Notes under the pieces: generated by a model | Databases searched by the model: none | Seen by the model: the letters and a program-made list of their open reading frames with translations, nothing else | Told to the model about the DNA's origin: nothing | Made by a program: the position numbers and the translations under genes | Part shown: piece after piece, positions 33,068-36,267 of the stretch | How positions within the stretch are numbered: the stretch's first letter is position 1 | Layout: every line of letters begins with the position of its first letter | Virus record (IMG/VR): IMGVR_UViG_3300042888_002402 | Strand: one strand, 5' to 3' | DNA length: 64,000 nt | DNA from: a virus

Positions 33068-33571
33068 ATGCTATATCAAGATCAAGTACGCAAAGACATA
33101 TTACATTGGCTGGAAAACTTTGTTGAAAAGCCACACCCTGCACTAGGCGGCTGGGCACCTTGCCCGTATGCACGTAGGGCCAGACTGGACAATGATTTCG
33201 AAATTAGACTGGGATTGGCGCCTATACATGATTTGATAAAAATCAGCAAGCACGGTCTTGGTGGTAAAAGTGTTATTATCATTGTGTACAAAGCTGATCA
33301 AGTATCACATGAATCGTTCAGCAACGATATTGAAATAGCCAACAGAGAATTTTTGTTGCCAAATAACCTGTTGGCACTGGAAGATCACCCTGATGATGTA
33401 GAAATGGTAAATGGAGTTTGCATGAATCAAGGCACTTATGCATTGGCACTGGTGCAAAACCTTGATGATCTCAATGCCAAAGCCCACCAGATGGCCAACA
33501 AAGGATTCTATGACACGTGGCCAGAAGCATACTTAAAACCATTATTTAAACACAGGAAAGATCCACGATGA
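33068..33571 (+). CDS. DUF1415-like protein
   Basis: WLENFVE..CPYAR and DHPD..LALVQ motifs. Confidence 0.55.
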   Translation: MLYQDQVRKDILHWLENFVEKPHPALGGWAPCPYARRARLDNDFEIRLGLAPIHDLIKISKHGLGGKSVIIIVYKADQVSHESFSNDIEIANREFLLPNNLLALEDHPDDVEMVNGVCMNQGTYALALVQNLDDLNAKAHQMANKGFYDTWPEAYLKPLFKHRKDPR

Positions 33572-34707
33572 CATATTCAGTATACCAACACTGGGACCCA
33601 TTGAAAGTCTGTGTAGTAGGACGCAGCTATGCACCTGAATTTTATTCTTGGATCACAGTGCCTCATGTGAGAACATTATTTGAAAAAATTGCTATCGAGA
33701 CTGAGGAAGATTATCAAGCCATTATAAAAAAACTACAAGAGTTTGGTGTAGAAGTACTGAGACCTAATTTGCCAACAGATGCGTTTGCAAACGGAAAATA
33801 TGTCCCACCACCGATGTGTCCGAGAGATTATATGGTGATGACTGGCGACAAATTTTACGAAAACTATAGTTTTGCTTTTAAAAAATCATACCAGAATGTC
33901 AAAGACTTGTCCTGGCCAGACTGTAGTTCAATGGAAGAGTTCGTATTGTTACCCAACAGTATACAACAAGAATGCAACATTAACCATTGGTTCAACGAAT
34001 ACCAAAAAATTTATTCCACATGTGATCATATTTTTGATCACATACGCCAACAAGGAAATACAATTAAGTCACACCATTATGACACAGACTTGTTAAACGG
34101 AGCACAAATATCACGCATTGGCAAAGATTTGTATTTTGGAACAAACTCTTATGATCAAGACACAACCAATTATAAAAAATTTATTGACCAAGAATTTTTA
34201 AACACCAGAAATCACATTGTCAACACCGGCGGACATGGTGATGGAACCTACTGTCCTGTATGCCCTGGATTAATCATAAGTCTTTATGATGTGCCCACTT
34301 ACGCAAACACCTTCCCAGGATGGGAAGTAGTGTATCTTCCTGGGCAGAGTTGGAACAAAGTACAACCATTTTTAAATCTTAAACGTAAAAACAAAGGCAA
34401 GTGGTGGATACCAGGTTTTGAACATGACCAAGATGTAATTAATATTATTGAAAAATGGTTAGGACATTGGACTGGATATGTTGAAGAAACAGTGTTTGAT
34501 GTCAACATGTTGATCATTGACCCTAAAAATGTTATGGTGTTTAACTACAACAAACAAGTATTTGATGCATTGGATCGATATGGTATTACTCCGCATGTAG
34601 TTCCGTTTAGACACAGATATTTCTGGGATGGAGGAATACATTGTGTAACCAGTGATCTTCATAGAGAAGGTGTGATGCAAGATTACTTTCCAGGAAGGAA
34701 TCAATGA
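33568..34707 (+). CDS. Amidinotransferase (glycine/inosamine-phosphate amidinotransferase family, pentein fold)
   Basis: WDPLKVCVVGR, catalytic PRD / GHGDG / GGIHC motifs, and FDVNML. Confidence 0.9.
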   Translation: MTYSVYQHWDPLKVCVVGRSYAPEFYSWITVPHVRTLFEKIAIETEEDYQAIIKKLQEFGVEVLRPNLPTDAFANGKYVPPPMCPRDYMVMTGDKFYENYSFAFKKSYQNVKDLSWPDCSSMEEFVLLPNSIQQECNINHWFNEYQKIYSTCDHIFDHIRQQGNTIKSHHYDTDLLNGAQISRIGKDLYFGTNSYDQDTTNYKKFIDQEFLNTRNHIVNTGGHGDGTYCPVCPGLIISLYDVPTYANTFPGWEVVYLPGQSWNKVQPFLNLKRKNKGKWWIPGFEHDQDVINIIEKWLGHWTGYVEETVFDVNMLIIDPKNVMVFNYNKQVFDALDRYGITPHVVPFRHRYFWDGGIHCVTSDLHREGVMQDYFPGRNQ

Positions 34708-35147
34708 CATATCAATTTGCCAGAATTGACCTCAGTAAAACTGAATATACACCTAGTGTACACTGGGAATATATCCAAGATCGCAGTGAAGATACATTAA
34801 AAAAATTAGATGATATCTACAGGACCTACACTATTTACAAACACTTTGCTAGTGTAATGCCTATGTTTCACAGTAGATATTTGGATCCAATGGCAGATGT
34901 CATTGGCTACTACGATAACAACAAACTTGTGGCATGGAGTTTGATCCGGCGTTTTGATAACCATAATGCCCTGTGCGATCAATTTGCATGGACATATCAT
35001 CAACCTCGTTCAAGATTAGGAATTGAAACGATGAAAACAGAATGTGCTATCTACAAGGAGCGAGGATTTAAATACCTGTATCTTGAACAAGCACATCTGT
35101 ACAAATCTGAAATTGATGGATTTGAAATAATAGGACCACTGGAGTAA
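34704..35147 (+). CDS. ATE/Bpt-like aminoacyl-tRNA-dependent transferase, single GNAT domain
   Basis: GYYDNNKLVAWS..FAWTY..RLGIETMKTEC..RGFKYLYL parallels the C-terminal domain of arginyl-tRNA-protein transferase. Confidence 0.6.
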   Translation: MTYQFARIDLSKTEYTPSVHWEYIQDRSEDTLKKLDDIYRTYTIYKHFASVMPMFHSRYLDPMADVIGYYDNNKLVAWSLIRRFDNHNALCDQFAWTYHQPRSRLGIETMKTECAIYKERGFKYLYLEQAHLYKSEIDGFEIIGPLE

Positions 35148-35149
35148 CA

Positions 35150-35485
35150 ATGGATTTATACACAATTTGGGCAGACAAAGAGGGCGATATTTCTGACCTT
35201 GACTGGGTCAACGGAATGAAAAGTTTTTTTGATCATTTGATTGCTGAAGGCCGAATGGAAAGCTATAGAATCACAAGATGCAAAATGGGATTCCGCAGCA
35301 TTGCTAACATGCCCGAATGGATGATCATCATGGAATTTAAAGACATGGCTCAGATGGACATGGCATTCAAACGAGTAGCACCGCTCGAAGGCGAACTCGA
35401 AGAGAAACACAAATCGTTTAATCAATTTGTCAGTGGCAACATACAGCATGCGCTCTTCAGAGACTGGCCTGATCAAAATCTATGA
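35150..35485 (+). CDS. DUF6614-like ferredoxin-fold protein
   Basis: YTIWAD..DHL..EG..YRITRCKMGF..PEW.I.MEF..MAQMD.AF..V..ALFRDWPD pattern, GGAG RBS. Confidence 0.55.
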   Translation: MDLYTIWADKEGDISDLDWVNGMKSFFDHLIAEGRMESYRITRCKMGFRSIANMPEWMIIMEFKDMAQMDMAFKRVAPLEGELEEKHKSFNQFVSGNIQHALFRDWPDQNL

Positions 35486-36267
35486 AATACACACTTTTTG
35501 CAGGTTGTTCATACACAGCCGGCGACGGATTTGAATTGAAAAAAACTGAACCGTCTTTGTGGGTTAATCAGGTATATCATAAATGTTTTTCGCACACTAC
35601 CCAACTTAACGTGAGTCGAGGTGGCCGATCCAATGCAGGTATTTTTCAAGACACAGTAAAAGTATTATTAACGTATCCGGTTGAATATGCCATAGTCGAA
35701 TGGACCAGTATGCCGCGCTATGAGTTAGAATTAGGTTTTGAAACTTACACTACCAGACAATGTTTTATGCCAAATCTCAAATGCCATACCCATAACTTAA
35801 ATGATATAAACTACACCAGTGCTTATTTGACTTCAATTTGCGAGAGGTTTACATCACTGGCACACGATTACTACGAAATATCAAATCTTATTGAGTATGT
35901 TAATACAATTGTTAATCTTGCACAATTAACAAAAACCAAAGTCTTTTTTATCAATGGATTGTGTCCTTGGGACAACAATTTTTTTATTAAAAAAGAATCT
36001 GTGCTTCCATCTGAATATACCACGTATACTCAAAAACTATTAAACACCAACAGTCGAGATGATACCGAAGTGTTTCAGTTATACAATACCATGCATGATA
36101 ATTTTATTAATTTGGGTGGCATACACGAACTACTATGGTTAAATTTATATAATTCGATGCTATCAAGCAAAATAGATGTAAACGATGATCTTGCTCATCC
36201 TGGCATTAACTCTAATAATCTTTATTTTGATTTATTTTCTAAGCTATTAACCAAACAACTACTTTAA
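35482..36267 (+). CDS. SGNH/GDSL hydrolase-like protein
   Basis: FAGCSYTAG (block I), GGRSN (block II) and DLAHPG (block V). Confidence 0.75.
   Translation: MKYTLFAGCSYTAGDGFELKKTEPSLWVNQVYHKCFSHTTQLNVSRGGRSNAGIFQDTVKVLLTYPVEYAIVEWTSMPRYELELGFETYTTRQCFMPNLKCHTHNLNDINYTSAYLTSICERFTSLAHDYYEISNLIEYVNTIVNLAQLTKTKVFFINGLCPWDNNFFIKKESVLPSEYTTYTQKLLNTNSRDDTEVFQLYNTMHDNFINLGGIHELLWLNLYNSMLSSKIDVNDDLAHPGINSNNLYFDLFSKLLTKQLL

Follow-up and report, generated by a model that had tools for sequence, protein, structure and literature searches.

A conserved gene module of uncultured freshwater phages that looks like an undescribed arginine/guanidine-modifying pathway

The 64,000-nt stretch of viral DNA analysed here (IMG/VR record IMGVR_UViG_3300042888_002402; hereafter the window) contains five consecutive open reading frames (ORFs), which we call A to E. 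An operon of this type is common to hundreds of related uncultured phages of freshwater origin. Its conserved unit comprises A, C and D. B, an optional and mobile gene, is associated with it repeatedly, and E is a passenger or an unrelated neighbour. By its composition, the module looks like an undescribed pathway that modifies arginine or guanidine groups. Tentatively, it may be read as a late-operon module with the core A, C and D and optional B, in which tRNA-dependent formation of an amide bond would be followed by haem-dependent N-oxygenation, a logic similar to that of argolaphos biosynthesis.

The conserved unit and its associates

In the window, A (33068-33571, 167 amino acids, aa), B (33568-34707, 379 aa), C (34704-35147, 147 aa), D (35150-35485, 111 aa) and E (35482-36267, 261 aa) are encoded on the + strand, behind a gp26-like baseplate hub gene and a conserved 58-aa ORF (orf58). 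As described in the first-pass annotation of this DNA, whose coordinates were exact, the five ORFs are coupled by ATGA overlaps or gaps of 1-2 nt; the junctions read TAAtATG (orf58/A), ATGA (A/B), ATGA (B/C), TAAcaATG (C/D) and ATGA (D/E).

Co-occurrence of the genes was surveyed in 160 IMG/VR loci, of which 80 were retrieved with B and 80 with the C family. A was located directly upstream of C in all 80 C-sampled loci, and D was found in 74 of them. The commonest arrangement was hub-orf58-A-C-D without B, which appeared in its exact form in 50 of these 80 loci and in 59 when variants were included. Of the 80 loci, 21 had B within the cassette or next to it, either at the A/C junction, at the C/D junction or at both (L135/136, L091, L051). 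Among the B-sampled loci, 49 of 80 represented cassettes, and the other 31 were different contexts with no neighbours in common. When 89 B proteins were placed in a quick maximum-likelihood tree, the three situations of B were interleaved, and well-supported branches forced at least 5 or 6 changes of position. Furthermore, eight of ten large records whose A-C-D cassette is without B encode one to four amidinotransferase paralogues elsewhere; the remaining two, where B had no match, are just 19-40% complete. E adjoined D in only four of the 160 surveyed loci (L004, L006, L092 and L151). Because of the locus survey, the tree and the paralogue counts, we regard A-C-D as the unit, B as its mobile associate and E as a passenger. 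The earlier idea of a five-gene unit recurring in other genomes was thus borne out for A, B, C and D, which are found together in many uncultured phages (with B as the optional member), and had to be given up for E.

The B paralogues of the large records are 36-69% identical to B (records behind L109, L125, L133, L139, L142, L147, L150 and L153, i.e. G001-G004 and G006-G009). One of the paralogues in related giant phage records has an internal TAA codon, and the expansion of amidinotransferases is unaccounted for by any explanation so far.

The arrangement also persists over large distances, since in a very divergent module B (30% identity), a longer C and A (37% identity) are adjacent in a different orientation. 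A gene of the fatty-acid desaturase family (di-iron oxygenases) adjoins B, the long C and A in this most divergent module (L081, 35-739). The site behind the hub genes takes other cargo as well, such as E, extra ORFs between C and D, or a superoxide dismutase together with an IscA-like gene. The latter case (L067, 7855-8743) is an A-C-B variant without D, where an Fe/Mn superoxide dismutase gene and an IscA-like iron-sulphur assembly gene are located downstream; these may relate to oxygen/iron chemistry.

The module is abundant in lake metagenomes; C and B have 2,250 and 4,645 protein clusters at 90% identity, respectively. The related contigs come from IMG/VR, and lake metagenome-assembled genome (MAG) bins also contain such contigs. 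In a collection of 50,697 phage records, C was not carried by any cultured phage and B had weak relatives only. A genome scan with D detected only phage contigs binned into MAGs, and no bacterial context. Two of the sequences encoding the phage DUF6614 gene (L167 and L168, 148 kb and 183 kb, 87-92% identity) belong to a MAG labelled Haliscomenobacter sp. (Bacteroidota). They are probably phage genomes binned with their host, which would be a weak lead to the host.

C, a probable aminoacyl-tRNA-dependent transferase

C consists of one GNAT domain, a relative of ATE_C, and from its sequence relationships it is probably an aminoacyl-tRNA-dependent transferase. ATE_C was matched by 18 of 23 C homologues (best 9.8e-07), with no other family among the recurrent matches. 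An exhaustive profile search with C over 1.84 billion representatives yielded 179 relatives, including proteins of 225-268 aa with an extra N-terminal region. These longer relatives are linked to the C profile at 1e-13 to 1e-34, and all ten that were scanned matched ATE_C with up to 49 bits, above the Pfam cut-off. In one relative only (P0263), another GNAT family, Acetyltransf_6, was also touched, more weakly. The structural model of C (predicted local distance difference test, pLDDT, 95.1) shows the whole 147 aa as one GNAT domain. Its best fold neighbours include C-terminal domains of enzymes with two GNAT domains in tandem, namely aminoacyl-phosphatidylglycerol synthases, the aminoacyl-tRNA peptide synthases Sba18/Sbb17, FemX and ATE1. 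The first-pass view that the 147-aa ORF is not an ordinary acetyl-CoA GNAT was upheld by the sequence tie to ATE_C; structure alone cannot separate the donors.

Residues of C were mapped by a HMMER alignment to K. lactis Ate1 (KlAte1), which is weak (E = 0.39; chain index = residue number + 4). In KlAte1, Tyr303-Lys304 are catalytic, and Glu277 is the sole charged residue of the Arg pocket, its counterpart being Gln in the Leu-specific Bpt (PMC9351520). Tyr303-Lys304 correspond to Y133-K134 of C (the equivalent Lys in FemX is K305), and Glu277 aligns with E113; each of these three residues is at least 90% conserved among 64 family members. On this weak alignment, retention of E113 at the Glu277 position would favour a basic aminoacyl group (Arg or Lys). 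As judged by eye, the usual R/Q-x-x-G-x-G/A motif for the pyrophosphate of coenzyme A (CoA) is down to a single invariant Gly in C.

C thus resembles the Ate1/Bpt enzymes (ATE_N + ATE_C) in its ATE_C-type GNAT domain, the catalytic Tyr-Lys pair, a Glu corresponding to KlAte1 Glu277 and a YLYL...YK...GFE tail. Unlike them, it is half the size of Bpt and falls below the Pfam cut-off. No ATE_N match was found in C or its cassette neighbours; C therefore lacks the Cys4 metal site and the pocket with which Ate1/Bpt read acidic N-termini.

A, a probable new branch of the thiolate-haem fold

From its structural model (pLDDT 95.9) and its N-terminal Cys motif, A is best called a new branch of the thiolate-haem fold, sharing the sandwich fold of AglA, DUF1415 and DUF6875 (cytochrome P422), and it is probably a Cys-ligated haem oxygenase. 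The model reached a template modelling (TM) score of 0.83 against an Atlas cluster in which both DUF1415 and DUF6875 are represented. When it was compared exhaustively (VIA) with 48,161 PDB chains, there was a single outlier, AglA (9ub3_A; Z 7.3, root-mean-square deviation 4.1, 150 of 167 residues), the next chain having Z 4.2. In argolaphos biosynthesis, AglA, one of the YqcI/YcgG enzymes like DcsA and GntA, serves as thiolate-haem guanidine N-hydroxylase. Its ligand Cys44 is located after helix 1, and the order of elements described for it, a1 a2 b1 a3 b2 a4 b3 b4 a5, is also that of A (PMC12866846). Between helices 1 and 2 of A, C32 is invariant in the motif W-x-P-C-P-[YF]-A; it was equated with Cys44 by position arithmetic only. 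A Foldseek search of the PDB returned nothing for A, and a profile search of PDB sequences returned nothing useful.

DUF6875 was matched below threshold by 19 of 22 A homologues over the first 40 residues (best 9.3e-05). This family, cytochrome P422, comprises Cys-ligated haem proteins with the ligand in an RxGxVCP motif (bioRxiv 10.64898/2025.12.11.692455). In A, as in P422 tryptophan hydroxylases and DUF1415 proteins, an N-terminal helix precedes a Cys-Pro motif, which in A would hold the haem ligand; the Atlas cluster similarity is a further common trait. It differs in its length (167 aa vs 180-300) and in the motif itself, which reads G-x-W-x-P-C-P, the Arg of RxGxVCP being absent. As for the substrate motifs of P422, compared by eye and unaligned, MxGxF has a near-match in MNQGTY (residues 119-124) and the other two were not recognised. 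Full-text literature searches retrieved no paper on phage YqcI-type or DUF1415 proteins.

B, an amidinotransferase of the AGAT/HsvA family

The full-length profile match and the invariant catalytic residues indicate that B is a true member of the AGAT/HsvA family of amidinotransferases. As a single sequence, B matched HsvA, AGAT, SxtG and StrB1, chiefly in its C-terminal 70 residues, and Pfam ADI with 17 bits (cut-off 22.8). A family profile of 22 sequences gave full-length matches to AGAT (1.8e-19), HsvA (4.4e-16), SxtG (2.3e-15) and StrB1 (2.6e-12). The Asp/His/Cys motifs already recognised at first pass were confirmed, as D87, H223, D225 and C359 are invariant in the 22 B homologues. These align with Asp170, His303, Asp305 and Cys407 of AGAT, so the catalytic Cys and His as well as the two guanidinium-binding Asp are all kept. 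On the other hand, B differs from the AGAT/StrB1/SxtG/HsvA/CyrA enzymes in showing a similarity of only about 25-30% when the C-terminal 70 residues are left aside, and in the one to four paralogues carried by each related phage genome. An N-terminal extension of B that appeared in some loci was dismissed as an artefact of extra weak tblastn segments.

The only phage amidinotransferases that we found discussed in the literature are annotations in cyanophage S-SCSM2R, where the gene lies beside genes for 2-oxoglutarate (2OG)-Fe(II) oxygenases; a distant amidinotransferase and a prolyl-dihydroxylase-like oxygenase were detected in the virion proteome of this phage (PMC12801897). In Synechococcus phage S-SCSM2R (L171, 4548-7531), we observed a gene for a 297-aa distant amidinotransferase followed by two 2OG-Fe(II) oxygenase genes, a second pairing of amidinotransferase and oxygenase in phage. 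Literature searches on phage amidinotransferases and N-degron transferases detected no pathway such as the one considered here.

D and E

D belongs to DUF6614 (PF20319), which it matched over its full length (2.7e-22, 79.4 bits vs a cut-off of 25); the nearest Atlas clusters are all DUF6614 and all viral. It is the most conserved product of the cassette, with identities of 69-94% among the loci and 50 invariant columns, of which many are polar. A profile search of PDB sequences with D returned no solved relative. The possibility that D itself serves as substrate of C through an N-terminal Asp was considered and is argued against by variation of the N-terminus (MD vs MAD). A preprint describes anti-Druantia activity of a phage ORF that was predicted to be DUF6614; this is the only phage paper that we found for DUF6614 or DUF6875. 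PADLOC assigned none of the five cassette proteins to a defence or anti-defence family.

E can be described as SGNH-like from its motif pattern. Among 10 homologues, S10, G48, N158 and H239 are fully conserved and D236 almost fully, and they follow the order of SGNH blocks I, II, III and V. E had no Pfam, PHROG or NCBIfam match and, in a single-sequence search, no PDB match; its nearest Atlas clusters partly carry DUF6071. Of the family labels given at first pass, DUF6614 is therefore solid (79 bits), while the DUF1415-like label of A stands through structure, the ATE-like label of C through the family profile and the SGNH label through the motif pattern only.

Comparison with known systems and a tentative pathway

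The closest known logic is that of argolaphos biosynthesis in Streptomyces monomycini, where AglC makes AMPn-Arg from Arg-tRNA and AglA then hydroxylates its guanidine (PMC12866846, PMC8976061). In both systems, a tRNA-dependent, amide-forming enzyme of GNAT fold would be encoded beside a small Cys-ligated haem oxygenase of sandwich fold, and AglA is the only clear structural match of A. The differences are considerable. AglC has 342 aa and is of the Acetyltransf_6 type, whereas the phage C has 147 aa and a single ATE_C-like domain. The phage A is without a YqcI/YcgG sequence match, and the phage module contains DUF6614, often an amidinotransferase, and no phosphonate genes. Finally, the argolaphos genes form an actinomycete gene cluster and the module is encoded by phages. 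A more remote parallel is provided by D-cycloserine biosynthesis, where a haem hydroxylase, DcsA (YqcI/YcgG, producing N-hydroxy-arginine), is followed by DcsB, an arginase-like enzyme that cleaves N-hydroxy-arginine; the parallel lies in a hydroxylation after which the (hydroxy)guanidino carbon of arginine is removed or moved. However, DcsB is a hydrolase with the arginase fold and differs in this from a Cys-His amidinotransferase, and this pathway has no tRNA-dependent step.

The observations made here are the coupling of the genes, their co-occurrence, their assignment to families and folds and the conservation of catalytic residues. From these, we infer which amino acid is donated and to which acceptor, in what order the steps take place, the haem binding and the product as follows. 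C would take an aminoacyl group, most likely Arg or Lys, from charged tRNA and join it by an amide bond to a primary amine. A, as a Cys-ligated haem enzyme working with redox partners of the host, would then oxidise the product, most likely by N-hydroxylation of a guanidine. B, encoded in the cassette or elsewhere, could move an amidino group from arginine, either to build the guanidino or amine partner or to pass on the (hydroxy)amidino group, and D might act as an obligatory partner. A small molecule or short peptide seems the most likely acceptor, with a protein N-terminus as the main alternative.

We favour this pathway because the core pairs AglC- and AglA-type enzymes and because amidinotransferases, which handle the guanidino group of arginine, were recruited repeatedly. 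The arginine-centred pathway suggested at first pass gains weight from the resemblance of A to thiolate-haem guanidine N-hydroxylases; however, the optional and mobile amidinotransferase can hardly be its centre. The oxygenase step is an addition to that proposal, and no analysis made here lends support to the targets it named, i.e. virion glycans, DNA bases or the host envelope.

Weighing the alternatives

Several results speak against the proposed pathway. As for C, the window protein itself scored 14.9 bits against ATE_C, below the cut-off of 25 bits, and the Pfam model of ATE_C matched nothing at 1e-3 in five related phage records. In addition, the characterised enzymes of the ATE_C family all act on protein N-termini and none on small molecules. 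As for A, haem binding is deduced from one Cys motif. The window protein matched DUF6875 (PF21780) with 18.3 bits (cut-off 24.5) over residues 10-47 only, an hhalign comparison with five bacterial DUF1415 proteins gave P ~1e-3 and aligned just the first helix and the Cys motif, YqcI/YcgG (PF08892) had no match at E <=1 in the 22 A homologues, and a ferredoxin gene was not found in five related phage records. As for B, the position aligned to AGAT Asp254, the third residue of the triad, is N177 and varies among homologues (N, P, Q, T or S), in a stretch that is poorly aligned. Moreover, most cassettes are without B, and guanidine transfer is therefore not essential to the core.

The action of all characterised ATE_C enzymes on protein N-termini is also the starting point of an alternative that we consider rather unlikely, though worth keeping in mind. 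According to it, C adds an amino acid from tRNA to the N-terminus or a side chain of a phage or host protein, as Ate1 and Bpt do at N-termini, which would result in an N-degron for recognition by ClpS/ClpAP or in maturation of a virion protein. A would oxidise the acceptor beforehand, as plant cysteine oxidases do before arginylation, or the added Arg afterwards. The fixed position of the cassette behind baseplate hub genes, in what looks like a late structural operon, agrees with this alternative, as does the distant amidinotransferase in the virion proteome of S-SCSM2R (PMC12801897). ClpS genes occur in two related phage records with the cassette, and in another phage contig ClpS is located 4 kb from a 260-aa Bpt-like relative of C. 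Nevertheless, the two former ClpS genes are more than 100 kb away from the cassette and were present in only two of five records, and C has no ATE_N, the domain which holds the pocket for acidic N-terminal acceptors in Ate1/Bpt. The characterised relatives of A all act on free amino acids or small conjugates, and an amidinotransferase has no known place in N-degron pathways. The phage-encoded ClpS homologues are found at 306097-306330 in G001 and 212442-212675 in G002, and the ClpS/Bpt-like pair at 2178-2465 and 6001-6783 in L085. The L085 contig also has a gene for a UvsW-like helicase and hints at use of N-degrons by phages.

Quite unlikely, in our opinion, is that C is an ordinary acyl-CoA GNAT and that the module acylates, oxidises and amidinates a metabolite, for example a polyamine, without any tRNA. 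The structural comparison does leave room for this, as the acetyl-CoA enzyme VipF and N-myristoyltransferases tie with aminoacyl-phosphatidylglycerol synthases as fold neighbours of C (Z 13-15), and MshD ties structurally with tRNA-dependent enzymes too; the structure of C therefore gives the fold and not the donor. HsvA, the amidinotransferase of the Erwinia amylovora hsv locus, is among the closest solved relatives of B, and it is reported to prefer polyamines. However, the sequence signal of C is specific to ATE_C, with P0263 as the single and weaker link to Acetyltransf_6, the Y-K catalytic pair of aminoacyl-tRNA transferases is kept, and the CoA-pyrophosphate motif is reduced to its one Gly. 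Finally, the genes might share nothing but an insertion hot spot behind hub genes, their co-occurrence reflecting vertical inheritance in one phage clade, which we judge very unlikely. The varied cargo of the site would fit such a hot spot, and the loci all belong to a single group of uncultured freshwater phages. Prediction of an A+C+D complex, with D scored as the partner, returned a score of 0.01, which points neither way and so leaves the hot spot without a verdict from this side. Against it, A, B and C are still neighbours at 30-37% identity and in a different orientation, B joined the cassette several times, at either of two positions, the genes stay translationally coupled throughout, and D is far more conserved than its neighbours.

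Genomic context of the cassette

The upstream context of the cassette consists of the gp26-like baseplate hub gene (32012-32851, + strand; PF12322 T4_baseplate 2.7e-16, phrog_150 baseplate hub), which is the first gene of the co-directional run and precedes the cassette in most of the 80 C-sampled loci. Its nearest cultured relatives, at 28-34% identity, are Agrobacterium phage Atu_ph07 and Rak2-like jumbo phages, a closeness that assigns the window to an uncultured giant myovirus. The conserved orf58 (32890-33066, + strand) is always located between the hub gene and A; by tblastn, it was found in nearly all cassette loci at 43-95% identity, and it matched no family in Pfam or PHROG. The run diverges from a 912-aa gene on the opposite strand. 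The late-promoter motif TATAAATA was not found upstream of the hub gene in this window.

On the downstream side, a hairpin overlaps the stop codon of E (36267-36289, + strand; 10-bp stem, 3-nt loop, weak T tail). It was recognised as a pattern match only and possibly marks the end of the transcription unit. It is followed by a gene-free gap of about 400 bp 3' of E (36267-36673), which had no Rfam match at E <=1. An ORF of 108 aa within the gap (36415-36741) has an odd, low-complexity translation and looks spurious. On the minus strand, a 142-aa ORF (36673-37101) starts with an N-terminus, FVYLITN...GRKYIGKK, that resembles the GIY-YIG nuclease motif, and it may encode a homing endonuclease beside the cassette.

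No tRNA genes were detected in the 64,000 nt of the window. A related record of 340 kb that is 98% complete (G001) contains at least 30 tRNA genes at 99.5-112.9 kb (L181, L183, L185, L191, L198 and L199), covering nearly all amino acids and including three tRNA-Arg, and ARAGORN indicated a tmRNA-like gene in this cluster. This shows that the supply of charged tRNA is not limiting, and nothing more.

Implications

We regard it as possible, though short of likely, that giant freshwater phages encode a tRNA- and haem-dependent pathway of late infection which builds an N-oxygenated arginine or guanidine conjugate on a metabolite or a protein N-terminus. If this is true, A would be the first viral thiolate-haem oxygenase and C the first minimal single-domain ATE-type transferase with defined partners, and DUF6614 would obtain a first function, all as far as our literature search shows. 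At 147 aa, C would also be the smallest working ATE fold, and a functional handle on DUF1415-like proteins would be gained. Phages would then put charged tRNA to a use other than translation and couple it to oxygen-dependent haem chemistry, which would add to the few non-ribosomal aminoacyl-tRNA transferases. It was not until 2025 that the thiolate-haem sandwich enzymes (AglA, P422) were recognised; with a large viral branch, this family would become wider and might provide new small biocatalysts. Given the abundance of the module in lake metagenomes, its product could matter to the chemistry between freshwater phages and their hosts.

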